Assembly: GCA_963702105.1 (NCBI GenBank) | Contig: OY969712.1 | Span: 4,232,388 to 4,296,387, forward strand | Source of the DNA: an uncultured Gammaproteobacteria bacterium | Lineage (GTDB): Bacteria > Pseudomonadota > Gammaproteobacteria > Steroidobacterales > Rariloculaceae | Direction: 5' to 3' | DNA length: 64,000 nucleotides | In this document: positions 3,650 through 61,083 of the stretch, in pieces | How the letters are laid out: each line of letters starts with the position of its first letter | Numbering within the stretch: the first letter of the stretch is position 1 | Translations under genes and position numbers: made by a program | The notes under the pieces: generated by a model | Databases searched by the model: none | Told to the model about the DNA's origin: nothing | The model's input: only the letters and a program-made list of their open reading frames with translations

Positions 3650-3962
3650 CGTCACTCTCCCCTGGTCGTCGTCTTCTGCACGCAAGGCCTCCGCGCCGGG
3701 ACGCGGGGGCGCCGCTCTCGAGTTTAGCCCACTCCGCCGCGGAGACGGAGCCTCGGCCGCGCCGACGAATCTGCACGACAGTCTTTGGAAGGCGCTCCAA
3801 TTCTTTCAGTGCGTGCCTTCGGGCCGCGCGCGAGCCGAGCGCACCCGCGCGCCCGCGCCCCGAAGGCCGTGGCACAGCTATTGCACCCGCCCTGCCGAAG
3901 CGGCCGAGCCAGCAGGCTCACGAATATCTTGAGGGACGAGACACAACGCAGGAGGTGCGGCG

Positions 3963-5234
3963 ATGGCCTTCAACCCGCTCGAAGAGACCGGCATTCCCAT
4001 CGAAGAACAGTTTCGTAACTGGCGCGAGCTCAACGTCGAGCCGTACAAGAAGGATCAGGTGCATCCCTACACGCGCACGCGCGCGATCCTCATGAACGGC
4101 ATCGAAGTCGAGGCCGCCATGTTCTCGCATCAGATGGCGCGCAACACGCTCGACTCCGAGGTCAAGAAGGAGCTCGCGATGATGCGCCGCGTGGAGCAGC
4201 AGCAGCAGAAGGCCGTCAACTGGCTGATCCCGGGGGACGAGACGACGATCGAGGTGACGCTCGGCTACGAGCAGGTCGCCGTCGATCTCACGGCTTGGCT
4301 CGCGCGGCACGAGCCGGACCCCTACCTCAAGCAGGTCTACGACTTTGCGCTGCTCGAGGACTTCGACCACCTGTACCGTTACGCGAACCTCTACCAGCTC
4401 CTCGACGGCAAACGGGCCGAGCGCGTCTGCAGCGATCTGACCGAGATCATGCCGGGGCGGCCTACGATCTTCGAGCATCGTAATCCGCGCGACGAGATCC
4501 GGCGGCCCATGACGGCGCTGGCGGCGGCGCCGCAGTCGATCCTCAACGCGCTGACGATCGTCTCGGGCGAGCAGCAGACGATGAACTTCTATATGAACGT
4601 CGGCAACCGCTATCAGGAGCCCATCGCGCGCGCGACGTATGCCGAGATCGGCGAGATCGAGGAACAGCACGTGAGCCATTACGAGTCGATCCTGGACCCC
4701 GCAGCGAGCTGGTTCGAGAACCTGGTCATGCACCAATGGAACGAGTGCTGGCTGTATTGGTCGTTCATGCAGGACGAGCCCGACGCGCACGCCCGCCAGA
4801 TCTACGAGCTCCATCTGAACATGGAGCTCGAGCATCTGCGCATCGCATGCAAGCTCATGCGCGAGGTCGAGAAGCGCGATCCCGAATCCATCCTGCCGCA
4901 GCCGGCCTTCGAGCGCCCGATGACCTTCGAATCGAACAAGGCCTATCTGCGCGAGATCCTGCGCGCGCAGGAAGACCTCACGGCGAAGAACTCGGACTTC
5001 GTGCCCGTCTCGACGCTCCCCGAGGACGACCGCTACTTCGAGTTCCAGCGCCGCGTCAACGGCGATTGGGTTCCGACCGAGGAGGTCATTCGCGAGAACG
5101 TGCGAAAGAACGGCCAGGAGTACCGGCTCGAGACCGAGGGGCCGCATCCGGTACCCGGCCTGCGCATCGACGCCGACCGCGCGGGCGAGACCACCGAATA
5201 CGCGCGCCGCGTTACGCGGTCCGCCGCAGCCTGA
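3963..5234 (+). CDS. ferritin-like (putative di-iron) superfamily protein, uncharacterised
   Basis: AGGAGG RBS. Repeated E...ExxH-type helices (GEIEEQHVSHYE, NMELEHLRIA, EDFDHLYRY). No closer family recognised. Confidence 0.6.
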   Translation: MAFNPLEETGIPIEEQFRNWRELNVEPYKKDQVHPYTRTRAILMNGIEVEAAMFSHQMARNTLDSEVKKELAMMRRVEQQQQKAVNWLIPGDETTIEVTLGYEQVAVDLTAWLARHEPDPYLKQVYDFALLEDFDHLYRYANLYQLLDGKRAERVCSDLTEIMPGRPTIFEHRNPRDEIRRPMTALAAAPQSILNALTIVSGEQQTMNFYMNVGNRYQEPIARATYAEIGEIEEQHVSHYESILDPAASWFENLVMHQWNECWLYWSFMQDEPDAHARQIYELHLNMELEHLRIACKLMREVEKRDPESILPQPAFERPMTFESNKAYLREILRAQEDLTAKNSDFVPVSTLPEDDRYFEFQRRVNGDWVPTEEVIRENVRKNGQEYRLETEGPHPVPGLRIDADRAGETTEYARRVTRSAAA

Positions 5235-13775: not shown

Positions 13776-15545
13776 TTGGGAGTGAACGCTTGGCTCACGA
13801 TGGGGATCGTGGGCCTCATGGTCGTTTTGCTGATCGGCACGCGTATCGCGGCCGATCTGTTGCTCGTCGCTGCGCTGACCGTCCTGATCCTCGCCAAGGT
13901 GATCTCGCCGGCCGACGCGCTCGCCGGACTCGGCAACCCCGGCCTCGCGACCGTCGCCGTCCTTTACGTCGTCGTGGCCGGCCTCGTCGACACCGGCGCC
14001 GTTCACGCCGTCGGGGCGCGCCTCCTCGGGCGCCCGAAATCCGTCTCCTCGGCGCTGCTGCGCCTCATGCTGCCCGTTACGGCCGTCAGCGCCTTTCTCA
14101 ACAATACGCCCGTCGTCGCCATGCTCGTGCCCGTCGTCGAGGACTGGGCCAAACGCTCGCGCATCTCGGTCTCGAAGCTCATGATCCCGCTGAGCTATGC
14201 GGCGATTCTCGGCGGCACCTGCACCTTGATCGGCACGAGCACGAACATCATCGTCAACGGCCTCGTGCAGCAGCGGACGAACCTCGATCCCATAGGCTTT
14301 TTCGCGATCGGCGCGCTGGGCCTGCCGACCGCCGTCGTCGGCGTGCTCTTCGTGCTCGCGGCGCACCGCTGGCTGCTGCCCGAGCGGCGCCCGCCGCTGC
14401 GTGATTCGGGCGAGGGGCGCGAGTACACGATGGAGATGCTGCTCGAGGAGACGAGCCCGATGATCGGCAAGAGCGTCGAGCAGGCCGGTCTGCGGCATCT
14501 GCCGGGCGCCTTCCTCGCCGAGATCGAGCGCGCCGACACCGTGCTTCCGGCCGTCGGGCCGGCCGAGGTCCTGCGGGCCGGAGACCGTCTCATGTTCGTC
14601 GGCGTCGTCGACTCGGTCGTCGACCTGCTGCGCATGCGCGGCCTCGTTCCCGCGCCCGAACAGCTGTTCAAGCTTTCGGCGCCGCGGCCCGAACGGCGCG
14701 TCGTCGAAGTGGTCGTCTCCGCGAGCTGCCCGCTCGTCGGCCGCACGGTCCGCGAGGGCCGGTTCCGCTCGCGTTACGACGCCGTCGTCATCGCGGCGGC
14801 CCGCAACGGCCGGCGGCTGCGTGGCAAGATCGGCGACATCGAGCTGCAGGTCGGGGACACGCTGCTGCTCGAGACGCGCCCGTCCTTCCCGACCCAACAG
14901 CGCAACTCGCGCGATTTCCTGCTCGTCAGCGAAGTGCAGAACGCCGCGCTGCCGCGCCACGACCGCGCCTGGCTAGCGGGGCTTATTCTCGCCGTCATGG
15001 TCGCCCTCGCCGCAACCGGCGCGCTCTCGATGTTCGAGGCTGCGCTCGTCGCCGCCGGCCTCATGCTCGCGACGCGCTGCACCACCGCGAGCGCCGCACG
15101 GGCGAGCATCGACTGGTCCGTCCTCATCGTCATCGGCGCCGCGCTCGGCATCGGCCGCGCGCTCGAAGCCAGCGGCGCGGCCCACGCCGTCGCCTCGGCC
15201 TCGATCGGCGCACTCGGCGGCAGCCCGTGGCTCGCACTGCTCGCGGTCTACATCGTCACGAGCGCATTCACGGCGCTGCTCACGAACAACGCCGCGGCCG
15301 TCATCGTATTCCCGATCGCGCAGGCCACCGCTCAATCCCTGGGCGTGAGCCTGTGGCCCTTCGTCTTCGTCATCATGATGGCGGCCTCGGCCAGCTTCGC
15401 GACCCCGATCGGGTATCAAACGAACCTCATGGTCTACGGACCCGGCGGGTATCGCTTCTCGGACTACGTGAGGTTCGGCTTGCCGCTCAACGTGCTGCTC
15501 GGAGCGATCGCCGTGTTGCTTGCGCCGGTGATCTGGCCGTTCTGA
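13776..15545 (+). CDS. SLC13/DASS-family permease with two central TrkA-C domains
   Basis: Many TM segments flank a cytoplasmic region (..GKSVEQAGLRHLPGAFLAEIER.. and ..GRTVREGRFRSRYDAVVIAAAR..) typical of TrkA-C pairs. The start is uncertain (TTG 13776, GTG 13782 or ATG 13800). Confidence 0.85.
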   Translation: MGVNAWLTMGIVGLMVVLLIGTRIAADLLLVAALTVLILAKVISPADALAGLGNPGLATVAVLYVVVAGLVDTGAVHAVGARLLGRPKSVSSALLRLMLPVTAVSAFLNNTPVVAMLVPVVEDWAKRSRISVSKLMIPLSYAAILGGTCTLIGTSTNIIVNGLVQQRTNLDPIGFFAIGALGLPTAVVGVLFVLAAHRWLLPERRPPLRDSGEGREYTMEMLLEETSPMIGKSVEQAGLRHLPGAFLAEIERADTVLPAVGPAEVLRAGDRLMFVGVVDSVVDLLRMRGLVPAPEQLFKLSAPRPERRVVEVVVSASCPLVGRTVREGRFRSRYDAVVIAAARNGRRLRGKIGDIELQVGDTLLLETRPSFPTQQRNSRDFLLVSEVQNAALPRHDRAWLAGLILAVMVALAATGALSMFEAALVAAGLMLATRCTTASAARASIDWSVLIVIGAALGIGRALEASGAAHAVASASIGALGGSPWLALLAVYIVTSAFTALLTNNAAAVIVFPIAQATAQSLGVSLWPFVFVIMMAASASFATPIGYQTNLMVYGPGGYRFSDYVRFGLPLNVLLGAIAVLLAPVIWPF

Positions 15546-15584
15546 ACGCGCTATGCCGTCGGCCGCACGATTCATGAACGGGTC

Positions 15585-15716
15585 GGCCGCACTCATGGAC
15601 GCCGTCGGCCGCACTCATGGACGCCGTCGGCCGCACTCATGGACGCCGTCGGCCGCACTCATGGACGCCGTCGGCCGCACTCATGGACGCCGTCGGCCGC
15701 ACTCATGGACGCCGTC
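15585..15716. repeat. 22-bp tandem repeat x6 (GGCCGCACTCATGGACGCCGTC)
   Basis: Perfect head-to-tail copies with no spacers. They are flanked on both sides by the related box GCCGTCGGCCGCACGATTCATGAACGGGTCGG (15555-15586 and 15711-15742). Confidence 0.9.
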
Positions 15717-15720
15717 GGCC

Positions 15721-15905
15721 GCACGATTCATGAACGGGTCGGGCGCCGCGGTTGGGGCGGAGGTTCGTGCATGAGGCCGCTGTCGGGACCGGCGTGAATC
15801 CGTCCCTGGAGCCTTCGTGCGCGCCATCCCTGGCGCTCACGATCCCGACAGCGGCCTCATGCACGAACCTCCTCTTCGACGTGGGCGGCCGTTCATGAAT
15901 CGTGC
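15721..15905. repeat. full-length nested-palindrome element (MITE/REP-like), copy 1
   Basis: 17-bp terminal inverted repeats GCACGATTCATGAACGG / CCGTTCATGAATCGTGC. Inner arms GGAGGTTCGTGCATGAGGCCGCTGTCGGGA / TCCCGACAGCGGCCTCATGCACGAACCTCC (15759-15872). Conserved core GCGCCATCCCTGGCGC plus CCGTGAATCCGTCCCTGG. Confidence 0.8.
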
Positions 15906-15979
15906 TGAATCCGCGCGGGGAACTCGCTCGAGCAAAGACGCCAGGTTCCTGCGCTCGTCGGAGCTCACGACGATCACAG

Positions 15980-16070
15980 CCGTCTCAGACCGACGTCTCG
16001 GGGCGGAGGTCTCGGCCCGAACTACCAACGTCTCGCGGCGAACGTCTCGGCGCCAACCACCGACGTCTCA
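15980..16070. repeat. degenerate ~35-bp units, inverted relative to the 16187-16404 array
   Basis: Units such as CCGACGTCTCGGGGCGGAGGTCTCGGCCCGAACTA contain GTCTCGGC and GGGCGGAGG. These are the reverse complements of GCCGAGAC and CCYCCGCCC in the right-hand array. Confidence 0.5.
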
Positions 16071-16192
16071 GGGCGGAGGGCTCGGCACAAGGGCGGTTTC
16101 GGGACGCTGAGCGCCAGGGATGGCGCTCAGCGAGCGCCCAGGGACGGGTTCACGGCGGTCCCGAAACCGCCCTTGTGCCGAGCCCTCCGCCC
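16071..16192. repeat. REP-like palindromic element, core copy 2
   Basis: Arms GGGCGGAGGGCTCGGCACAAGGGCGGTTTCGGGA / TCCCGAAACCGCCCTTGTGCCGAGCCCTCCGCCC. Core GCGCCAGGGATGGCGC ... CCAGGGACGGGTTCACGGCGGTCCCGA. Confidence 0.8.
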
Positions 16193-16404
16193 ACCCCACC
16201 GACGTATCGGCGCGGAGACCTCCGCCCAACCCACCGACGTGTCAGCGCGGAGACCTCCGCCCACCCCACCGACGTGTCAGCGCCGAGACCCCCGCCCACC
16301 CCACCGACGTGTCAGCGCCGAGACCCCCGCCCACCCCACCGACGTGTCAGCGCCGAGACCCCCGCCCACCCCACCGACGTGTCAGCGCCGAGACCCCCGC
16401 CCCA
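16187..16404. repeat. 35-bp tandem repeat, ~6.2 copies (CCGCCCACCCCACCGACGTGTCAGCGCCGAGACCC)
   Basis: Period 35 checked at 16191/16226/16261/16296/16331. The last four units are identical. The array abuts the stop codon of the minus-strand gene at 16406. Confidence 0.9.
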
Positions 16405-16405
16405 C

Positions 16406-16912
16406 TCAGAGCTTCCGCGAGTCGTAAGCCCAGTGCAGCAGCGCCTGCCGTTGCCGCCGGCGGCAGTCCAGGTCGCCGCGTTCGCAGTGCTTGCGGATCT
16501 GCGCCGCATGACGGCGCACCGCGCGCCAGCGCTTGACCTGGCGCGCATCGTCGTCGCAGCGTCTGCCGAGGTAATAGCGGCAGTACCACTGGAACCAGCC
16601 GCGCGGGTCCTCGTGGTAGATCCAGCCCTTGCGGCGCCACTCCGCGAGCGGTTGCGAGGCATTGACGCCGAAATAGTTGAGTTCCGGGTTGCGTCGTTCC
16701 GGCGAGAGCTTGGCGCCCGCGAACCACTCTCTCGGGAACTCTTCGCGGCAGTCGGTCAAGTACTTGCCGCCGAAGACGCCGAGCTCGAGCATTTCGGAGG
16801 GCGTCAGCTCCGGCGCGAAATAGGGGTCGAAGTCGCTGCCCGGCGCGACCGTGCGAAAGTAGACATAGCCCGACTGCATGCGGTCGTTCACGACGATTCT
16901 TCGAGGCTTCAC
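16406..16912 (-). CDS. conserved-looking hypothetical protein, Trp/Cys-rich (no family recognised)
   Basis: Track ORF 16406..16972. I prefer the GTG at 16912, which overlaps the upstream GNAT stop as GTGA. The alternative is the ATG at 16879. Non-biased sequence: ...GVFGGKYLTDCREEFPREWF...NYFGVNASQPLAEWRRKGWIYHEDPRGWFQWYCRYYLGRRCDDDARQVKRW... Confidence 0.6.
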   Translation of the reverse strand: MKPRRIVVNDRMQSGYVYFRTVAPGSDFDPYFAPELTPSEMLELGVFGGKYLTDCREEFPREWFAGAKLSPERRNPELNYFGVNASQPLAEWRRKGWIYHEDPRGWFQWYCRYYLGRRCDDDARQVKRWRAVRRHAAQIRKHCERGDLDCRRRQRQALLHWAYDSRKL

Positions 16913-26616: not shown

Positions 26617-26642
26617 AAAAAGGGGGCAGAGCCCTTTTTTTT
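26617..26642. terminator. A-tract/hairpin/T-tract element (bidirectional intrinsic-terminator-like), copy 1
   Basis: AAAAAGGGGGCAGAGCCCTTTTTTTT. Confidence 0.5.
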
Positions 26643-29912: not shown

Positions 29913-32900
29913 CTAAAGCTTCGATTGGCTGAGCTGCCGATAGTATTCGGCGACCGCGTCCTCGTAACCCTTCTCGATCTTGACGGGAGGTTCGGTCCTG
30001 ACGGCGTCCGATTCGTCGCTGCCGCCCGCCGATTTGTCGAGCTTCAGCTCGAGCTGATCGACCTCGTTCGCGAGCGTCTGAAAGTCCTGCGCAATGGCGT
30101 CCGGGTTCCCGGTACCCGCGAGTGCGGCTCTGAGCTTCTCGCCAAGAGCCTGCACGGCACGCAGCTCCTCGTCGCTGAGCCCCTGCGCGCGCAGCTTCGA
30201 GCCGAGATTCAGCAGATCGTTGCCAGCCGTCTGCAGCCGATCCCGGGCCTGCGCGATCGTCTGGGGATCCCAGCGGAACGACGGGTCGTAGGGGCCCCAG
30301 ACACGGTCCGTGTTCGGGTTGTAGTAGCCGCCGCCGCCGTTGTTGTAGCCGCCGCCGGCATAGTTGCCGCCCGCGGCCCCGCCGCCCCCGCGCTGACCCG
30401 AGGCCTGCTGCCCGCCCTGCTGACCGCCGGCCTGCTGAGCCTGCTGACCCTGCTGACCGGGCTGGCCGTTGGCCGCCTGGAGATTCTGCTGGCTCTGCTG
30501 GTTCTGCTGGCCGGGCTGCGTGCCGGGCTGCTGGGGGTTGCCCGGCTGCAGCGCGCTGCCCGGCTGCCCGTTCGCGGCCTGCTGCCGGTTCTGCCCTGCG
30601 CCGGGCGCGCCGTTCGGGCGCGCCTGACCGCCCGCGCCGCGGTTCTTGAGGTCGTTCATCTCGCGGCGCAGCGCCTGCAGCTGCGCGACGAGCTGCTGGT
30701 TCGGGTCGGCCGTCGGCCGGTCGCCCTTCTCGGCCTCGCTGCTCGCGAGCGCGAGCGCGTCCTTCGTATCCTGCTCGAGGTCCCTGAGCGCCTGGGTCGT
30801 GACCGCGTCGGTCGCGGCGACTTCGGTCGCGTACCCTTCGCGGATGCCCTCCGCCGCGGTCGTGAGCCGTGCTTCGGCCTGCGACTGCTGGAGCTTCGTC
30901 AGCGACTTATCGAGCTGCTTCGCCGCGCCCGGGGTCTGACCACGGAACTGCTGCGAGACCTGCTCGATGTCCTTCTCGAGCGCCTGCAGATCCTTGCCGA
31001 GCGCGTCCTTGCGGTCGCCGAACTCGGCCGACTGGCGATCGTCGAGATCGCTGCGGAAGCGGTCGCCGCCGCTCGATTTCCGCAGCGCGGCCTGCAGCTG
31101 CTCGGCCAACTGCCGTTGACGTGCGTAAAGCTCGCTCGAGCGGTCCGCGAGGTCCGAGAACGCCTTCGAGGCGTCGGCCTGGCGTTGGGCCGTCATCTGC
31201 TGGAGCGCCTGCTGGAGCTGCCGGCGGGCCTGCTCGATCGCGCGCCGCGCCTGCTCGGGGTCCACGTTCTGACCCGCGGCGCTCGCGCGGTCCATGGCCT
31301 GCAGCGCGGCGTCGAGCTGCTGTATGGCCTGCTGCGTGGCAGAGTTGCCGGCCGCCTGACCGCCGGCCTGCGCCTGCTGCTGGCCCGGCTGCCCCGGCTG
31401 TCCGGTCTGCCCGGGCTGTCCCGACTGCTGCTGAGACTGGCCCTGCTGACCCTGCTGGCCCTGCTGACCCTGCTGGCCCTGCTGACCCTGCTGGCCCTGC
31501 TGACCCTGCTGACCCTGCTGACCCGGCTGATTCGCGGCCAACTGCTGCCGCTGGAGCTGCTCGAGCTGGCGCTTGAGCTCCTCGGTCTGCCGCCGCAGCG
31601 ACTCCTGCTGCCAACGGTCGCGCTCGGTCAGCTGCTGCCGGTTCGCCGCGAGCTGCGCAAGGCTCTCCTGCCGGCGCGCGAGCTCCTGAAGCTTGCGGAT
31701 CGCATCGTCTACGCCCTGCTGCTGCTGCTGCTCGAACGAGACCGGCTTCTCCGTTTCGTACTGGTTCTTCTCCAGGTCCATCTCGAGCTCGAAGAGCTCG
31801 CTGAGGTCCCGCCCCGCGAGGCCGCCGCCCCCGCCGCCGCCGTTACGCTGGAACGAGACCTGGATGTCCGTGAACAGCGATTCGGCGTGGATCAGGTGCT
31901 GGAGCGCTTCCTGCTCGGGCGTCACGGCGTCCGAAAGCTTCACGTCTCCGAGCCGCTCGGCCGCAGGCTTCATCGAGTCGGACGCCTGCTCGAGGCTCTT
32001 GACGAACTCGGCGATGCGCGGGTCCCGGTCCGTGAGCTCGCGGGCCTTCGTGCGCGAGGCGAGCGTCTGCGCCTCGTCCGAGAGCGTGCGCTGCATCTCG
32101 GACAGCATCTTCGAGTTGTCCTCGATCTGCTGTTTGTCGAGGAAGCTCGAGCCCTGGTCTTCGCGCTGGCGGATCAGGTTCCAGGTCGCGACGAGGATTT
32201 CCTTCTGCCGGCGCGAGATCTCATCCTGCCGCTGGCCGCCGCCGCCGCCCCCGCCGCCGGCTTGGCTCGACTGCGTGTAGGAACGGTCGAAGGGCTCGAC
32301 CTGAATGAAGTAAAGGTCGGTCTGGACCGTGTGGTCGCGATCCTTGGCGACGGCGTAATAAGAGATCAAGTCGCCCGGCTCGAGCTTACCGGCCGCGCGC
32401 GCAATCGCCGCCTGCGCGTCCCCAGCCGGCGCAGGGCCGCCGGCCTCCGGGGCCGACTCCCCGCTCGGGGCCTGCCGCTGCCGGAACAGATCGAGCGGCG
32501 AGGGCGCGGGCCCCGCGGGACCCGCGCCGCCGGCCGTCGTCGCGGCGCCCGTCACGGCCTTGCGCAGATCCTCGAGGTAGAGCGTCTTCTCGTCCTCCGC
32601 GTGCGTGCTCCCGGCATCCAGGGCCGCCGTGTGCCACTCGCCGCCGTTGATCGAGTAGTGCAGCTCGACCTGATTGAGGCCGAAATCGTCGCTGGCCTCG
32701 ACGTCGAGGGGCACTTCCTCGATTCGGCTCGCGCGGTAGTCGCGGCCGGGCTTGACGAGCTTGATGACGGGCTTGTTGTCCGGCACGACCGAGATGAAGT
32801 AGTCGTCGGTCAGCTTAACCTTGTCCTTGTCGAACAGCGTCGAGACGTAATACTGGCCTTCCTTGTCCACGTCGATCGTGGCTTTGCTCACGTTGCCGCT

Positions 32901-40121: not shown

Positions 40122-41287
40122 GGGGACCGGTCCGCGCCGGAGGGCGGATTCGTTTCGGCGGGCGGGCTCGTGTCAGTAGTCGGGCTCGTGTCAGTAGTCG
40201 GGCTCGTGTCAGTAGTCGGGCTCGCCTTGGTTCCCAGCGCATCGCCGTCCGGGGAAATCTGCTTTTGCGCGTCCGCCGCCGCTGCATCGCCTGTGGGCCC
40301 CGCCGACGCGCCGGCGCCCTCCGCTGCCTTGCCGCCCTTGCCCTGGGCCGCGTCGATCTTCTGCTGCACCTTGGCAAGATTCACGAGCAGCGCCTGCAGC
40401 TGGTCGAGGTAATCCGCCTGCTGCAGCGTATCCTTGCGCTGGCGCAAAGCCTCGATGCGGCCTTCGATGTCGCCGAGCTGCGAATACAGCGCCGCGACCT
40501 CCGGAGTCCGCGTGCCGAGCTCGGTCAGGCGGGCGGCCATAAAGTGCGGGGCTTCCTTGCCCTCGAGCTGCGGATGCTCGGTCGCGAGCGTGCCCTCGCT
40601 CTTGTAACTGTCGGCCACCTGCCGCGAAGCGTAGTCGAAGGCCTCCTTGGCCGTGACGACGCCGTCCTTGTTCGTGTCCGCCTCCTTGCTCGAGAGCGCC
40701 GCGGCCCACTGCGTGCCGAAGCGCGTGGCGTTGCGCTCGGCGCCGCTGCGCGTCGCCGTGATCACGGTCCTGCCGTCCGCCGACCACTTCTTGAGCACGG
40801 CTCCGCTCGCGCTCGTCGCATCCACGACGAGCTGGGACCGCGCGGGCAGCGCGGCCAGCCACTTGGCGAGCTCGTCGCCGTCCACGTCCGGGCCCGGGAT
40901 GTTGAACTTGTAGTGCTCGCCGTCGTAGCTGCCGTGGCCGATCAGGATCACCACTGCGCTGTCGCTCTCCTTGAGCTTGCCCGCCATCTCGCGGAAGGCC
41001 TTCTCCATGGAGGCGCGCGAGACGGCCGAGCCCGTCAGCAGCTTCACGCGCGACTGGTCACCGACCGTGCGCCGCGCGGCCGCGGCCAGCGACTTCGCGT
41101 CGGCGACGAACTGCTTTTCGTAGTCCGGCTGGCCCCCGAGACCCGAGACGATGAGGTAGTACGGCTCCGCGAATGCGGCGGGTGCGGCCAGCGCCGCGGA
41201 AAACGCCGCGAGGGCGGCGAGCCCCAATCGGCGGCGCGCGCGCGGCTTTTCCGAGACTCGGCTCGCGAACGTCATCGGTTCCATCAT
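40118..41287 (-). CDS. secreted protein: caspase/legumain (C13/C14)-fold-like domain lacking the canonical Cys, EF-hand loop, coiled coil and (TTDTSP)3 tail
   Basis: Start at the ATG at 41287, overlapping the upstream stop (ATGA). Signal peptide ...RRLGLAALAAFSAALAAPAAFA. VVILIGHGSYDGEHYKF (His-Gly) and LVVDATSASGA where DxCxSG is expected. DTNKDGVVTAKE matches the 12-residue EF-hand loop. The fold assignment is my judgement, not a search result. Confidence 0.6.
   Translation of the reverse strand: MMEPMTFASRVSEKPRARRRLGLAALAAFSAALAAPAAFAEPYYLIVSGLGGQPDYEKQFVADAKSLAAAARRTVGDQSRVKLLTGSAVSRASMEKAFREMAGKLKESDSAVVILIGHGSYDGEHYKFNIPGPDVDGDELAKWLAALPARSQLVVDATSASGAVLKKWSADGRTVITATRSGAERNATRFGTQWAAALSSKEADTNKDGVVTAKEAFDYASRQVADSYKSEGTLATEHPQLEGKEAPHFMAARLTELGTRTPEVAALYSQLGDIEGRIEALRQRKDTLQQADYLDQLQALLVNLAKVQQKIDAAQGKGGKAAEGAGASAGPTGDAAAADAQKQISPDGDALGTKASPTTDTSPTTDTSPTTDTSPPAETNPPSGADRSP
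40164..40217. repeat. 18-bp tandem repeat x3 encoding (TTDTSP)3
   Basis: GGGCTCGTGTCAGTAGTC x3 read directly. A partial fourth unit follows. Confidence 0.85.
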
Positions 41288-43527
41288 AGACGACCCCATC
41301 TGAGGCGCAGCAGCCATTCCGCGCCCTTGAGCACCAGCAGCAGCAGAAACGCGGCCGGCGCGTTCCACAGCTCCAGCACCTGCCGCTCGACGACGCCCGC
41401 GTCCGAGAACCTTACGGCGTCCGGCAGCTTGCCGAGATCGGCCAAAGCGAAGTAGCGGCCGCCCGTCGCCGCCGCGAGGCGCTCGAGCAGCGGCCGATTC
41501 TGCTCGACGTGGAAATGCTCGGCCACGTTGTCCTCGCGGCGCACGGCCGCTTCGGCCGTGCCGAGCGCCTTGCCGCCCGCCTCCGCCGTCACGTCGAAGC
41601 GGTAGGCACCGGGCGCTTCGGCCTCGAAGGTCGCGCGGTAGATGCCGGGCTCGCCGGCGGCGGGCGTCATCTCGAGCGACGAGGGCCCCTTCGGGCCGTC
41701 GATACTGAGCGTGACCTTGGCGTCCGACGCCGGCTCGAAGTGCTCGTCGCGCACTTCTGCGCGCAGCGCGACGCGCGTCTCATCCGGATAGAACGCATGA
41801 TCCGTCGTCAGCGTGACCGGCGCCGGCGCGCTTGCCGCGAGCGTCTGCAGCAGCTGCCGCCAGAACGTCTCGTGACGCTGGTCCTCGTGAGGCAGCTGCA
41901 TCTGCCAGCGCCACGTTCCGCCCGTGGCCAGGATGTATGCGTTGCCGAGACCGTAATGCTGCTCGACGAGCAGCGGCTCGCGCTTGCCCTCGAAGTCGGC
42001 GTCGAGCAGCGCAACGGCGCCGGGCTTGAGCTTGCCGAGATGCTGGAAATCGGCGATCTGCGGCATGCCTTCCCAGGCCTTGCGGTTCGCGTCGTCGCCC
42101 TCCGCGAGGCGCATGGTCGGCGAGCGCGCCCCGTCGTCCGTCAGCACGGCCTTCGCCGGCATGCGCACGAAGCTCGGGCCGTTGTCCACGTTCGGCAGCT
42201 GCGCCGGCAGCACGTCGGCCACGACCGTCGCACCCCAACCGCCGTCCGCGAGACCCCGGCGGCCGCCGAGCATGAGCAGAGTGCCACCCCGGCGGCTCAC
42301 GAAATCCTGAATCATCTGCTGCTGCTTCGCCGTGAGCGCAGCGGCCTCGTAGCTGCCGATGATCAGCGCGTCGTACTTGAACAGCGTCGCATCGTCGCTC
42401 GGGAAACCGTCCTTGAGCTCGTCGGGCGATTCGATGCCCTGGCGATAGAACTTGTTCGGCGTCGTGCGCAGCAGGCTCGCGAGCCGCACCGTAGACTTGT
42501 CCTCGACCGCGCGGCGCATGAATTTGTACTCCCACCGCGGCTCGCCCTCGATGTACAGGACGCTCCGATGCGCGTCGGGCACGACGAGCGGCCGCGGCAG
42601 GGTGTTGTTGATCGTATTGCGCTCGCCGGGCAGCGCCGCGAGCGTGAAGCGCAGATCCTTGAGACCCGCCTTCTTGATGTCGAGATCCACCGATCGGGTC
42701 GTGACGCCGGCCTCGTCCGGCAGCTGGATCGTCTTCGAGGCCAGTATCGCGTCGCCGTCGTAGACCTTGAGGTCGGCGCTGCCGCCGCGCGCGTGGCGGA
42801 TGCTGACCTGGGCGCTCATGGTCGTCCCGGGCAGCGCCTGTTCGGGCAGGTCCACATCCTCGAGTTCGAGATCCTCCGGCATCTTCTCGCGGCCGACGCC
42901 GACGGTATCGACTGGCACGCCGAAACTCGCGATCTCCGCGATCCTGGCGGCGTCGAGCGAGCCCGAATTGTCCTCCCCGTCGCTGACGAGCACGATCGCG
43001 CCGAGCGCGCCGGAGCGCGCGCCGCGCAGCACGGAGAGGAGCGCATCGCCGATGTGCGTCTGCGGCCCCGGCGCGGGCACCTTGGCCAGCGAGGGCAGTT
43101 CGACGGCGTCGTTCGCGAACCCGTAGAGATCCACCTGGAACTGGCGCTGCAGCGCGGGCAGCGCCGAGGCGCCGAGCGCCTGAGTGGCCTGCTGCAGGCG
43201 CGACTCCTTGCCTTCGCCGTAAGTCATGCTGGCCGACGTATCGAGCACGACGGCGACCGAGTTCTGCTTGGGCTTCAGGGTCTGGCTCAGCAGCGCCGGC
43301 CGCCAGAGCAGAAACAGCGCGAGCACGAGCACGGCCGCCTCGAGCACACCGAGCGCCGCGACCTTTGCGGGCGCGAGCCCCTGGTGCGTGCGCGCAAGGC
43401 TTACGCCGACCCCGGCGGCCGCGGCGACGCCGAGCAGCGCGAGCAGCCAGACCGGCCAGCCGCTCGCGAACACGAAGTGCGAGCGCGCGAAGGTCTCTGG
43501 GGAATACTTGAAGAACAGGTCGAACAC
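41284..43527 (-). CDS. membrane protein: N-terminal 2 TM, VWA domain, GATase1-like (DUF1355-type) domain, Ig-like region and C-terminal TM
   Basis: GTG start with AAGGA RBS. VAVVLDTSASMTYGEG (MIDAS). SVLYIEGEPRWEYKFMRRAV and ALIIGSYEAAALTAKQQQMIQDFVSRRGGTLLMLGG (class-I glutamine-amidotransferase-like fold, from memory of DUF1355). C-terminal APAAFLLLLVLKGAEWLL. Confidence 0.8.
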   Translation of the reverse strand: MFDLFFKYSPETFARSHFVFASGWPVWLLALLGVAAAAGVGVSLARTHQGLAPAKVAALGVLEAAVLVLALFLLWRPALLSQTLKPKQNSVAVVLDTSASMTYGEGKESRLQQATQALGASALPALQRQFQVDLYGFANDAVELPSLAKVPAPGPQTHIGDALLSVLRGARSGALGAIVLVSDGEDNSGSLDAARIAEIASFGVPVDTVGVGREKMPEDLELEDVDLPEQALPGTTMSAQVSIRHARGGSADLKVYDGDAILASKTIQLPDEAGVTTRSVDLDIKKAGLKDLRFTLAALPGERNTINNTLPRPLVVPDAHRSVLYIEGEPRWEYKFMRRAVEDKSTVRLASLLRTTPNKFYRQGIESPDELKDGFPSDDATLFKYDALIIGSYEAAALTAKQQQMIQDFVSRRGGTLLMLGGRRGLADGGWGATVVADVLPAQLPNVDNGPSFVRMPAKAVLTDDGARSPTMRLAEGDDANRKAWEGMPQIADFQHLGKLKPGAVALLDADFEGKREPLLVEQHYGLGNAYILATGGTWRWQMQLPHEDQRHETFWRQLLQTLAASAPAPVTLTTDHAFYPDETRVALRAEVRDEHFEPASDAKVTLSIDGPKGPSSLEMTPAAGEPGIYRATFEAEAPGAYRFDVTAEAGGKALGTAEAAVRREDNVAEHFHVEQNRPLLERLAAATGGRYFALADLGKLPDAVRFSDAGVVERQVLELWNAPAAFLLLLVLKGAEWLLRLRWGRL

Positions 43528-43613
43528 GGACAGTCCTTGGATGGGAAGGGGGACCTTACGCCGGAGCTTACCCTCGCCGTGCCGTCCCGCCTAGTCCGCG
43601 AAGGGCCGGTTTC

Positions 43614-43642
43614 GCGACAGTCTCGCGGCGTGCGGCTATTAT
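43614..43642 (+). promoter_or_regulatory. sigma-70-like promoter candidate (GCGACA-N17-TATTAT)
   Basis: The only AT-rich hexamer in the divergent intergenic region. It lies 33 nt upstream of the GTG at 43675. Confidence 0.25.
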
Positions 43643-43674
43643 CAATTACCCCCGCGCCAGCGAAGGCGGACGAC

Positions 43675-43899
43675 GTGACGCTCGAGGAAAAGAAGGCGGT
43701 TGTCGGCGATTTTCTACGACGCTGCAACGCCTACGCTGAAGAAAAGTTGACGCAGTATGCCCGCGAGCTCGAAAGCGCGGCCGGACCGGGGGCCGAGGAG
43801 CTGCGCAGTAAGCTGCGGGACTGGTCGGCGTACCGGAGGTTCAACGAGCACGCGCTGACGGAGCTCGAGGGCGAGACGCTCGATCGGTGGTTTTCCTGA
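43675..43899 (+). CDS. small hypothetical protein (74 aa), helical, divergent from the MoxR/VWA operon
   Basis: Tail of track ORF 41509..43899. GTG start preceded by AAGGCGGA. VTLEEKKAVVGDFLRRCNAYAEEKLTQYARELESAAGPGAEELRSKLRDWSAYRRFNEHALTELEGETLDRWFS has normal, non-GC-biased composition. Confidence 0.4.
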   Translation: MTLEEKKAVVGDFLRRCNAYAEEKLTQYARELESAAGPGAEELRSKLRDWSAYRRFNEHALTELEGETLDRWFS

Positions 43900-43902
43900 C
43901 GT

Positions 43903-43915
43903 CCCCCCCCCCCCC
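43903..43915. repeat. homopolymeric C tract (~13 C)
   Basis: Counted by eye: GT CCCCCCCC CCCCC GCG. It starts 4 nt after the small-ORF stop and ends ~46 nt upstream of the ATG at 43961. Confidence 0.85.
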
Positions 43916-43960
43916 GCGATTCGGGCACGCCGCTTGCACGGTTTCCCCGGAGGGCGGAAC

Positions 43961-44827
43961 ATGTCCCGGGGCCGCGGCGGCAGGAAGGCGCGGGCGGACA
44001 CCGCGAATGCCGCGAGCGGGCGAGGACCGATGAGCGAAATCGACAAGGGCAGGTGGCTGGCCAGAACCCTCTACGGAGCGGCCGCGGCCATGATCGTCGT
44101 CGCCGCCGTCGCCGCTTCCGGAGACGAGGCCGATCCGGCCCAGGCCGAGTGGCCCACCTCGGAATTCCATTTCGTGCGGCTGCACTACGACGATTCGTCG
44201 TACTGGGGCGGCTACGGCGGGCGTTGGGGCGGACACTGGCTCGTGGACACTCCCGCGGCCGAGTATCACTTCGCGCATAACATTCCGCGCCTCACGAACG
44301 TCAACGTCGACCCCGAGGAGCGGCGCTTCAGGGCCAGCGACGAAGCCCTGTTCAACTACCCCTTCCTGTACGCCGTCGAGGTCGGACACTGGTCCCTCGA
44401 CGATCAGGAGGCGGCGCACCTGCGCGAGTACCTGCTGCGGGGCGGCTTCCTCATGGTGGACGATTTCCACGGCCCGCAGGAATGGCAGGTCTTCATGGAA
44501 ACCATGACGCGCGTCTTTCCCGACCGCCCCGTCGTCGACGTCCCCGAAAGCGATCCGATCTTTCATACGGTCTACAATCTCGACAAGAGCGTACAGGTGC
44601 CCGGCATCCGGCCGCTGCTCATGGGCGTCACTTACGAGTACGGCGGCAAGGTGCCCCACTGGCGCGGCATCTACGACGACGACGGGCGGCTCATGGTGCT
44701 CATCGACCACAACATGGACCTCGGCGACTCCTGGGAGCTCGCGGACAAGTCTTACTATCCCGAGCACTACTCGGCGCTCGGCTTCCGCTTCGCCGTGAAC
44801 TACGTCATTTATTCAATGACGCATTGA
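43961..44827 (+). CDS. DUF4159 domain-containing protein
   Basis: ATG at 43961 follows GGAGGG. The alternative ATG is at 44030. FHFVRLHYDD...WLVDTPAAEYHFAHNIPRLTNVNV...EALFNYPFLYAVEVGHWSLDDQEAAHLREYLLRGGFLMVDDFHG...DPIFHTVYNLD matches my memory of the DUF4159 pattern. Confidence 0.75.
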   Translation: MSRGRGGRKARADTANAASGRGPMSEIDKGRWLARTLYGAAAAMIVVAAVAASGDEADPAQAEWPTSEFHFVRLHYDDSSYWGGYGGRWGGHWLVDTPAAEYHFAHNIPRLTNVNVDPEERRFRASDEALFNYPFLYAVEVGHWSLDDQEAAHLREYLLRGGFLMVDDFHGPQEWQVFMETMTRVFPDRPVVDVPESDPIFHTVYNLDKSVQVPGIRPLLMGVTYEYGGKVPHWRGIYDDDGRLMVLIDHNMDLGDSWELADKSYYPEHYSALGFRFAVNYVIYSMTH

Positions 44828-58652: not shown

Positions 58653-61083
58653 CTACGATCCCGATAGCCAATCCATCTGCCGCTCGTCGCCGATGACGCG
58701 CTCGAAGTCTAGCCCCAGCGTCTGGAGCACGGGCTCGGCCACGGGCCGGATCTGCTTCTCGACGTAGTGCTCCCGGTCGAGCGGATGGCGCAGGTTGTCG
58801 AGCGGCTCGGCGCCGGCCGTCGTCATGATGTAGCTCACGAGCCGTCCCGCATCGTTGGACTTCCGCGCGGCGGCCACGTGAGGGGGTGTCGAGGCCGTGT
58901 ACGCCTCGGCATTTTTGCGCAGCTGCTTGCGGTACACGAGCGCTCCATCGAGCTCGCCCCGCCTGAGCCGCCGCACGACGCCCGCGAGATAGGCGTCGAC
59001 GGGTTGGCCGGCGAACAGTCTCGCATAGAGCTCCCGCTGCACGTCCTTGGCGAGCGCGGTCCAGTCGCGCCGTACGACCTCCATGCCGACGAACTCGACC
59101 CCGCCGCCGGCGAGCAGCCCCACATACCGCTTGCTCGCGCCGCGTGCGCTGTGGCGCGCATGGGGCAAAAACAGTTTGATGTAGAGCTTCTCGAATTCGA
59201 TCTCGAGCCGGCTCGCGACACGACAACGCTCCTCGAGATGGCGTGCGAGGGCGGCGTTGAGCGCCGCGGCGAGCTCGCGGGCCCGCGCATCGAGCGCATC
59301 GAGCGCATCGGGCGCATCGAGCGCATCGGGCGCATCGGGCGCATCGGGCGCATCGAGCGACGCGGGGGCGGCGCCGGCGATCGGCTCCGCCTGCGAGCCC
59401 TCGGCCGCCGCCTCGACGAACAGGCTGTCCGTGTCGCCGTAAAGCACGCGAAACCCCGCCGCCTCGAACCACCGCTTGGCCCACAGCAGCAGCTCCCGGC
59501 CCGTGCCCGTGATCGCGTTCGCGAGCGCCGGATTGTAGAACCGGCAGGCCGGCGTGCCGAGCACGCCGTAGAACGAGTTCATGAGGATCTTGACCGCATG
59601 CGCGGCGACCGCGTCGCCGCGGCGCTTCGCCGCCTCGCGCTGCGGAAAGAGCTCGTCGAGAAGCCCCGGCAGGATCCCGGGCGCGCGCCGGAAGGCGGCG
59701 GCCGGCGTGCGTATGAGATCGTCCGCCGGCGAGGGCTCGGCGACGAACGTCAACGGATCGATGTTGAAGCTGCGGATGATGCTCGGATACAGGCTCTTGA
59801 AGTCGAACACCCAGACCGCGGCGTGAAGGCCGGGCGCGGGTTCGAGCACGTGTCCGCCCTGTTGCGCGGCGTGCACGCGGGCGTCGTCGCCGCGAACCGT
59901 CGGCGCCACGAGGCCGCGCCGCTCGAGCTCGGCCAAATACAGGAAATCGAACGACGCGATGCTGGCGGCCACGCGGTCGGGGGTCATTCCCGTAAGGCGA
60001 CTGCGGGCGAACGCGAGGCGCACGAGATCGAGGCGCTCGACGATCTCGAAGGCGAGGCGGGCGTCCGTGCGGGCGTAGCGGGCGAACGCGGCGAGATCGT
60101 GGCGATAGTCGTGCAGGATCTCCGCCGCGCGCTCCCGGACGTCCCCGTGCAGCGCCTTACCCTCGCCGAGCACTGCCCGCGCCACGGCATCGAGCGAGTA
60201 GTCCTCCATGCGCACGAAGGCACCGCGCAGCAAATTGATCCCGTCCAGCACGAGCCGGCCCGGGAGGCTGGCCTGGCCGCTGCCGAACCAGCCTTCGGCC
60301 TTGCGCAAGCGCAGCCGGCCCGGTCCGCGGCCGAGCGCGAGGGGATGCTGCACGCGCGCCGCGATCCGCTGCAGCACCGTCAGATCGAAGTCGATGGTGT
60401 TCCAGCCCGTCAGGAACGTCGGGATCGAGCTCGGCCACGCGGACGCAGAACGCTTCGGGGGCCTCGCGCTCGTCGGCGCAGCGCGTCGCGCGCTCGGGCA
60501 TGGCGCGCTCCGAGCCGTCGACGACGAGCACCTCGTCGCTGCCGAGGCCGTAAAGAGACACGGCAAGCAGGCGCCGAGCCTTCGGATCGGTTTCGATGTC
60601 GAACGACAGTATGCGGGGTTCGATCTCGACGGCCGCGGGCGCGATCTTCGCGTCCTCGAACACGAGGGAAACGCCGCGCCCCGGCCGTCCGGCTCCCTCG
60701 ATTTCGCAGCCGCCCTTGACGCCGCGCTCCATGAGGTAGCGGACGGCGAAGCGCACGTCCGCTTCGAAGGTCTCGATGCCCGCGGCGTGCAGCCGCTCTC
60801 TGATCGCCGGAACGTCCTGCGGCGTCTCCGTCTCGATCCTGCAGACGGTGGCGCCCGCGAACGTCCGGCGGTCGTCCGGCTCGAGAACGCCGAGCCCGAG
60901 CGCCTTCGCCTTCGGCGCAGCGGCCGCCAGGACGAAAAAGAGAGGGCGCTGACGCGTGTCGCGAAAGAGAAACGTGCGCCCGTCTTCGAGGCGGCCGTAG
61001 AGATGGATGACGGGCACGCGCCTCCCGCCTGCTCCGGCTTCGATGCGATAGCTGGCCTGCAGAATGAAGCCGCGGACGTTCAT
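58653..61083 (-). pseudogene. polB: family-B DNA polymerase (Pol II, polB) split by a single-nucleotide frameshift at ~60414
   Basis: Track ORF 60157..61083 carries the N-terminal and exonuclease part (ExoI LSFDIETD) up to ...VAELDPDV. Track ORF 58653..60566, in another frame, resumes at LTGWNTIDFDL. It then has motif A DFKSLYPSII, motif B KILMNSFYG and motif C YGDTDS. The total span is 2431 nt = 3n+1. Removing one C from GTT-C-CTG gives DPDVLTGWN, compared with E. coli Pol II DPDVIIGWN (from memory). Confidence 0.8.
59287..59358. repeat. 9-bp tandem repeat x8 (GCATCGRGC) inside polB encoding (DA[PL])8
   Basis: Read directly. The protein shows LDAPDAPDAPDALDAPDALDALDA just after motif C. Confidence 0.85.

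Follow-up and report, generated by a model that had tools for sequence, protein, structure and literature searches.

The window, by which we mean the whole stretch of 64,000 nucleotides that was analysed, derives from an uncultured high-G+C gammaproteobacterium and has a G+C content of 69.0%. Two sets of genes diverge at the locus described here. The minus strand carries a Bat-like/MoxR cluster, which begins with a VWA-type gene and also holds genes for a DUF4175-like giant protein, a BatA/VWA protein, a DUF58 protein, a MoxR AAA_3 ATPase, a TPR/Peptidase_MA_2 protein and one family-less protein. On the plus strand, a small ORF is followed by the genes for a DUF4159 protein, a thiamine-pyrophosphate enzyme, LptD, SurA and PdxA, and a run of C residues stands between the small ORF and the DUF4159 gene. 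The closest relative is the MAG MFD02416.bin.1.279 (L001/L003), whose DUF4159 protein is 88% identical to that of the window at the amino acid level. Further lineages follow with DUF4159 identities of 75% (L163), 72% (L164) and 69% (L165/166), and more distant relatives belong to the Steroidobacteraceae and the Woeseiaceae. The features considered are the following.

41284 to 43527, minus strand: VWA-type gene of 747 aa, first of the Bat-like/MoxR cluster (Pfam, weak sub-threshold VWA and GATase1-like matches)
43528 to 43674, no strand: divergent intergenic region between the VWA-type gene (minus) and the small ORF (plus), delimited by the gene boundaries and 82% identical to L001
43675 to 43899, plus strand: small ORF of 74 aa, GTG start at 43675, TGA ending at 43899, conserved in relatives and family-less
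43900 to 43922, plus strand: hypervariable spacer from the small-ORF stop to the promoter-like block, holding the tract (alignment to L001)
43903 to 43915, plus strand: C13 homopolymer, G13 on the minus strand (direct reading of the window)
43923 to 43963, plus strand: conserved promoter-like block, with GGGCACGccgcTTGCA at 43923-43938, 90% identical to L001
44030 to 44827, plus strand: DUF4159 gene of 265 aa with an ATG start (Pfam PF13709, E = 6.7e-45)

The VWA-type gene has its start codon at 43527, and its ortholog in L001 is collinear and 93% identical. The divergent region next to it contains a sigma-70-like site, GCGACA-17-TATTAT (43614-43642), which is a candidate promoter of the small ORF. 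An earlier note on this DNA had located the C tract inside the divergent control region of the MoxR/VWA cluster; the tract lies 225 nt beyond that region, past the small ORF. The small ORF itself is called as a gene of 74 aa in L001 and L163 and of 87 aa in L164 and L165/166, it is present in the gene listing of contig P0009, and tblastn finds it adjoining DUF4159 upstream in 10 distinct related loci, at identities down to 45%. Compared with L001, where nucleotide identity is 84%, 24 of the 35 differences fall at third codon positions. Given the gene calls in relatives, the tblastn matches and the third-position bias of the differences, the 74-aa ORF is a real gene that forms a conserved pair with DUF4159 and encodes an uncharacterised small-protein partner. 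Searches of Pfam and NCBIfam with the small ORF gave no significant match.

The DUF4159 gene was assigned its start by comparison with homologs. The ATG at 44030 is preceded by a GAGGA Shine-Dalgarno sequence and opens a signal-peptide-like N-terminus; the product is probably exported. The nearest homologs are 263-267 aa long and cover 92% of the 288-aa version that would begin at ATG 43961, and the comparison with L001 gives a single collinear tblastn match over residues 1-264. ATG 43961, which has GGAGG 7 nt upstream, was rejected as the start of DUF4159, since homologs have about 264 aa and the codon is out of frame in L001, L163 and L164 (in L001 through a 1-nt indel). By these alignments the conserved start is ATG 44030 and not ATG 43961. 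The distance of about 46 nt formerly given between the tract and the best start was thus right for ATG 43961, while the conserved start lies 114 nt beyond the tract end; the placement of the tract upstream of the DUF4159 gene holds in both cases. The ATG at 43961 is part of a conserved GAACATG (L001:7933, L163:1108, L164:5948, L165:2060). It opens an upstream ORF of 15-23 codons in L001, L163 and L164, the TGA of which overlaps the DUF4159 start as ATGA, and it is in frame with DUF4159 in the window and in L165. This arrangement could reflect translational coupling or a mere open frame in G+C-rich DNA; the upstream-ORF peptides show no conservation among the lineages. On what DUF4159 does, the literature offers nothing beyond the Pfam database paper, and the only solved relative, 4i66, is an uncharacterised protein. 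The MAG of L001 carries a second DUF4159 paralog (L002, contig range 2647751-2664554), 73% identical to the window protein, in an unrelated neighbourhood that has neither the small ORF nor the MoxR cluster and in which the gene adjoins a VirJ-domain gene.

The tract stands in the context TGA cgt CCCCCCCCCCCCC gcgatt, or more fully ...TTTTCC TGA CGT CCCCCCCCCCCCC GCGATTCGGGCACG..., where TGA (43897-43899) is the small-ORF stop. Three bases (CGT) separate the stop from the tract, which therefore opens at the fourth base after it, and positions 43903-43915 hold exactly 13 C residues, which confirms the run of about 13 C described earlier. A census of all homopolymers in the 64-kb window found this run to be the only one longer than 8 nt. 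After it come T8 (26635-26642) and C7 (627-633), and G runs reach 6 nt at most, which bears out the earlier remark that the 64 kb hold no comparable tract. By chance the window should contain 0.085 C or G runs of at least 13 nt if bases are independent and 0.002 if they follow a first-order Markov model; the observed decay of run lengths (a factor of 0.18 per added base) extrapolates to about 6e-5. In this respect the tract resembles the fim-type loci discussed below, in which a G/C homopolymer exceeds the length that composition predicts. We conclude that the C13 tract is confirmed as a genuine and statistically exceptional feature that did not arise as a chance run. Only weak inverted-repeat pairs, I1 and I12, 74% and 89% complementary, involve the tract.

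The comparison with related loci placed the tract in a segment of its own. L001 is fully syntenic with the window, 11 of 11 genes in 16 kb giving single unbroken tblastn matches, which argues against a chimeric join at the tract and against indel noise at any detectable level in the window. Aligned with the window, L001 has a 13-nt gap precisely at the tract, and in the 23-nt spacer (43900-43922) that holds it only 3 of the 10 aligned bases (about 30%) are identical, against 84-90% in the flanks. Downstream, identity to L001 is 90% in the block 43923-43963, 85% in the leader 43964-44029 and 83% in the 5' end of DUF4159. The tract is absent from L001, L163, L164 and L165/166, although all of these keep the small ORF, the promoter-like block and DUF4159, so that five related lineages retain the three elements and none has the tract. 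The spacers of L163, L164 and L165/166 are unrelated in sequence and length, with C5 in L163 as their longest C run. Spacer length varies from about 9 to 47 nt and differs in every lineage, the distances between small ORF and promoter being 9, about 16, 23 and about 47 nt. In the 1.25 Mb of 162 related loci, C runs do not exceed 7 nt or G runs 9 nt, and none of these longest runs lies upstream of DUF4159. The examination of orthologous loci that had been proposed as a check thus found no tract in the five close lineages or in about 160 more distant loci and did not support the earlier interpretation, and no tract of differing length occupies the orthologous site in relatives, as it would in a fim-type locus. 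By these alignments, the tract is lineage-specific and lies within the only unconserved segment of the locus. Sequence from the same species was also sought: exact-protein look-ups found no entry for DUF4159 (with either start), the small ORF or MoxR, and scans of genomes and metagenomes returned nothing nearer than a DUF4159 homolog of 88% amino acid identity and a metagenome locus of 63%, respectively.

Several sequencing platforms do not give reliable lengths for homopolymers of more than about 10 nt. The tract might accordingly be a product of sequencing or assembly, or a real tract with a miscalled length, through the poly-G/poly-C artefact of reads or the homopolymer error of long reads. 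Its exact coincidence with the indel relative to L001 would fit such an origin, as would the fact that the closest public relative is a MAG, so that the window may be a metagenome assembly too. However, synteny and 84-90% identity resume directly on each side of the tract, and the 11 unbroken genes of the 16-kb syntenic block point to a low indel error. A run of 13 nt is moreover shorter than the usual assembly k-mers, from which it would follow that reads with both unique flanks spanned the tract. Poly-G artefacts normally occur at contig ends, whereas about 20 kb separate the tract from the nearest window end, and long-read errors change the length of existing runs but do not create them. 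We therefore consider an artefact, in either form, very unlikely.

The block that follows the spacer can be read as a promoter in two ways. In a sigma-70-like reading, TTGCAC (43934-43939) and GAACAT (43957-43962) are separated by 17 nt; the hexamers are weak matches, but the geometry of TTGC, 17-18 nt and GAACAT is common to all five lineages (17 nt, and 18 in one case). Distant relatives (L004, L005, L012, L090, L101) have GTGACG, 16-17 nt and TAGCAT or TCGCAT, and in them the small-ORF stop codon and the -35-like hexamer overlap. On the sigma-70 reading, the conserved CATG with ATG 43961 in it would belong to the putative -10 element, which predicts a transcription start near 43969 and puts the tract at about -54 to -66. 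In a sigma-54-like reading, the site GGGCACGCCGCTTGCA at 43923-43938 (GGGCACG-CCGC-TTGCA) matches TGGCACG-N4-TTGCW at 15 of 16 positions, and its GG and GC elements are exactly 10 nt apart, the spacing expected of such a site, in the correct orientation upstream of a gene. This would put the tract at about -34 to -46. The distance from the tract end is 18 nt to the -35-like TTGCAC and 8 nt to the sigma-54-like GG element.

Several observations bear on the choice between these two readings. The exact motif GGCACGNNNNTTGC occurs only once in the 64 kb, both strands counted, at the site beside the tract, with 0.28 occurrences expected. The sigma-54-like motif, near-perfect in three lineages, persists in L164 and L165/166; in L001 it is degenerate, and L163 no longer has its GG. 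Among the 154 loci that have upstream sequence only 5 contain such a site with at most two mismatches. A six-frame translation of the window contains no enhancer-binding-protein signature (GAFTGA and related). The sigma-70-type architecture, by comparison, persists in distant relatives, and L163, without the -24 GG but with the -35/-10-like geometry, argues for a promoter of this type that has no obligatory activator. We thus think a sigma-70-type promoter more probable for DUF4159 than a sigma-54-type one. The contrast with known sigma-54 (-24/-12) promoters and their enhancer sites is of the same kind: the window bases also fit a sigma-70-type -35 element, with a conserved 17-nt spacing to GAACAT, and, with the -24 GG lost in L163, the motif degenerate in L001 and no activator-gene signature in the window, the site is only a candidate member of that class. 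On either reading the tract is outside the putative core promoter.

Two further promoter candidates were considered and set aside. An ancestral-type promoter in which the tract would be the spacer (C13 between CTGACG, at the stop codon, and GCGATT) was judged unlikely, as its -10 candidate is without the key A at position 2, its spacing is just 14 nt and the stop-codon context varies in the clade. An ECF-type reading of GGAAC found no conserved -10 at a fixed distance. Elsewhere in the window, a second sigma-54-like site, TGGCACAGCTATTGCA (3870-3885), lies 78 nt upstream of the ORF 3963-5234, which encodes 423 aa without a Pfam family and is followed by a hemerythrin/DUF892 gene.

The earlier proposal that changes in tract length may alter promoter spacing has its model in the fimbrial genes of Bordetella, where the tracts sit inside the promoter and one C more or less switches expression (PMC10172299). 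The tract of the window is like those of fim2, fim3 and fimX in having about 13 C residues, in belonging to a high-G+C proteobacterium and in preceding a gene whose product is exported or belongs to the envelope. The fim tract, however, stands between the BvgA site/-35 region and the -10, whereas that of the window lies wholly upstream of the -35-like or -24-like element. The predicted 17-nt spacing from -35 to -10 is wholly downstream of the tract, the length of which would therefore not set a critical spacing, and a mechanism of the fim type would not apply to a tract outside the -35/-10 interval. The two cases also differ among relatives, as sister species of Bordetella have the tracts too, in differing lengths, while the tract described here is missing from every relative. 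The bhuR gene of Bordetella is a nearer parallel than fim: its tract, 5 nt upstream of the -35 box, has been judged likely to affect transcription and is a candidate only (PMC1891110). The bhuR promoter was mapped experimentally and that of the window is predicted, and the gap to the -35 is 5 nt in bhuR compared with 18 nt to the -35-like hexamer in the window. Neisseria, Haemophilus and Campylobacter have contingency loci in which hypermutable G/C tracts of the same kind lie within genes and act by frameshifting; the tract of the window, in contrast, is outside conserved ORFs. An intragenic contingency locus is excluded by its position (43903-43915) past the small-ORF stop (43897-43899) and before the DUF4159 start (44030), and by the non-triplet indels relative to L001.

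A switch of another kind would act from outside the core promoter. Sigma-54 promoters depend on upstream-bound activators, and helical phase can matter for them. An activator might bind upstream, for instance an enhancer-binding protein at a site in the 3' end of the small ORF, and slippage in the tract could then alter the distance of this site from the DUF4159 core promoter, or their relative helical phase, so that the tract would be a functional phase- or rheostat-variable element and the exported DUF4159 protein would be expressed stochastically. Such an element would account for a C13 far beyond chance expectation, 8 nt upstream of the sigma-54-like GGGCACG-N4-TTGCA with its unique exact match, a site conserved in L164 and L165. 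The signal-peptide-like N-terminus of DUF4159 would place the gene in a class typical of contingency loci, and Bordetella provides precedents for promoter-proximal C tracts. Yet no relative has the tract, and it is outside the core spacer. The spacer lengths of the lineages (9, about 16, 23 and about 47 nt) do not differ from one another by whole turns of the helix, which argues against a phased upstream site. The promoter geometry that L163 keeps without the -24 GG favours the sigma-70 type, the window encodes no enhancer-binding-protein signature, and a second long tract is absent from the 64 kb. Weighing these points, we regard a phase- or rheostat-variable element as unlikely.

The tract was also considered at the level of RNA and translation. 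No conserved reading frame crosses it, as the 13-nt and 1-nt indels relative to L001 show. A poly-proline leader peptide (ORF 43887-44033, plus strand, SPPPPR across the tract, ATGA overlap with the DUF4159 start) was dismissed, being without a Shine-Dalgarno sequence and having its frame destroyed by the L001 indels. A structured RNA or riboswitch in the leader was likewise rejected: an Rfam search of the leader returned no family at E <= 1, and the fold was no better than that of shuffled sequence, with z = +2.25 for the window (less structured) and -0.31 for L001. No intrinsic terminator was found 3' of the small ORF, nor any terminator-like site in the leader, which makes read-through from the small-ORF promoter plausible.

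In such read-through RNA the poly-C could serve as a Rho-loading (rut-like) site that insulates DUF4159 from the small-ORF promoter, in which case DUF4159 would depend on a promoter of its own. Poly(C) is the classical strongest activator of Rho, the tract opens at the fourth base past the stop codon, a place at which ribosomes come off the RNA, and intrinsic termination, as noted, has no site there. The only 78-nt windows with more C than G between the small ORF and the first DUF4159 codons are those that contain the tract, with a C/G ratio of 1.24-1.35, compared with 0.57-0.76 on either side. This bias, however, is owed to the 13 C residues alone, and 13 nt is much shorter than a typical rut site of 70-80 nt. 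The spacers of relatives are G-rich or nearly absent at this place, so that the role is not conserved, and we consider insulation by Rho most improbable.

The account that we prefer, and hold to be probable if by no wide measure, is that the tract is a homopolymer prone to slippage that expanded recently in a spacer free of constraint, and that it affects DUF4159 expression in a graded way at most. The C13 would have arisen by expansion through replication slippage, or by a small insertion, in a spacer that varies freely and in this lineage only. C/G runs of such length undergo slipped-strand mispairing at high rates. Gain and loss of C residues by this route would be expected here from established knowledge, which makes a population heterogeneous in tract length probable. 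Because the tract is outside the conserved ORFs and outside the promoter core, a change in its length would neither shift a frame nor alter the core spacing. Its effect on DUF4159 transcription would be none, or a small graded change that might arise via contacts upstream of the promoter or via read-through transcripts from the small ORF; ON/OFF switching of DUF4159 would not be expected. Two points speak against such a neutral reading. Long C/G runs are strongly depleted in this DNA, so that the mere survival of a 13-mer could be a sign of selection for mutability, and the tract lies just 8-18 nt from the putative conserved promoter of a gene whose product is probably exported.

As to mutability in general, the earlier statement that long C/G tracts are prone to slippage agrees with established knowledge and with Bordetella pertussis, of which a single culture carries fim3 poly-C lengths from 11 to 16 (PMC10172299). 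Of the over-long homopolymer loci, 74% differ among three Bordetella species (PMC1891110). The tract described here is best filed as an unproven member of the over-long, presumably hypermutable intergenic homopolymers and not as a demonstrated phase-variation switch. The interpretation from which we started is in this way partly supported: the tract is real, beyond chance and upstream of DUF4159, but its location in the divergent region, the start at 43961 and the fim-type spacing were not borne out.

That the tract is a contingency element, a switch or rheostat possibly acting on a sigma-54-dependent promoter and tuning an exported DUF4159 protein in an uncultured, free-living gammaproteobacterium, seems to us decidedly unlikely, and its consequences may nevertheless be stated. 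If the tract varies and affects expression, it would constitute a homopolymer contingency locus in an environmental, non-pathogenic gammaproteobacterium, and a fitness trade-off in making the uncharacterised DUF4159 protein would be implied. Homopolymer phase variation would then extend beyond host-adapted pathogens, the switchable gene would adjoin the MoxR/VWA (Bat-like) envelope gene cluster, and a first regulatory handle on DUF4159 would be available. At present the main value of the case is cautionary, in that a homopolymer may be conspicuous and close to a gene start without being a switch. The ortholog comparison in addition yielded annotation, namely a corrected DUF4159 start, a conserved small-ORF partner and a conserved internal promoter block.

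Repeats of other kinds are found elsewhere in the window. A stretch of about 860 nt (15545-16406), apparently intergenic on ORF inspection alone, holds dense tandem arrays with units of 22 nt (7.6 copies, 15555-15724), 35 nt (2.8 copies, 15989-16086) and 35 nt (6.5 copies, 16177-16402), together with two long hairpin-forming inverted repeats at about 15750-15880 and 16085-16180. Shorter tandem repeats have periods of 9 nt (10.4 copies, 31437-31530, within the span of the DUF4175-like giant ORF), 9 nt (8.3 copies, 59285-59359) and 18 nt (3.6 copies with 97% identity, 40161-40224). The last of these lies near the 3' end of the family-less gene, the product of which stops aligning with L001 there. 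With periods that are multiples of three, these three repeats possibly encode length-variable protein segments.
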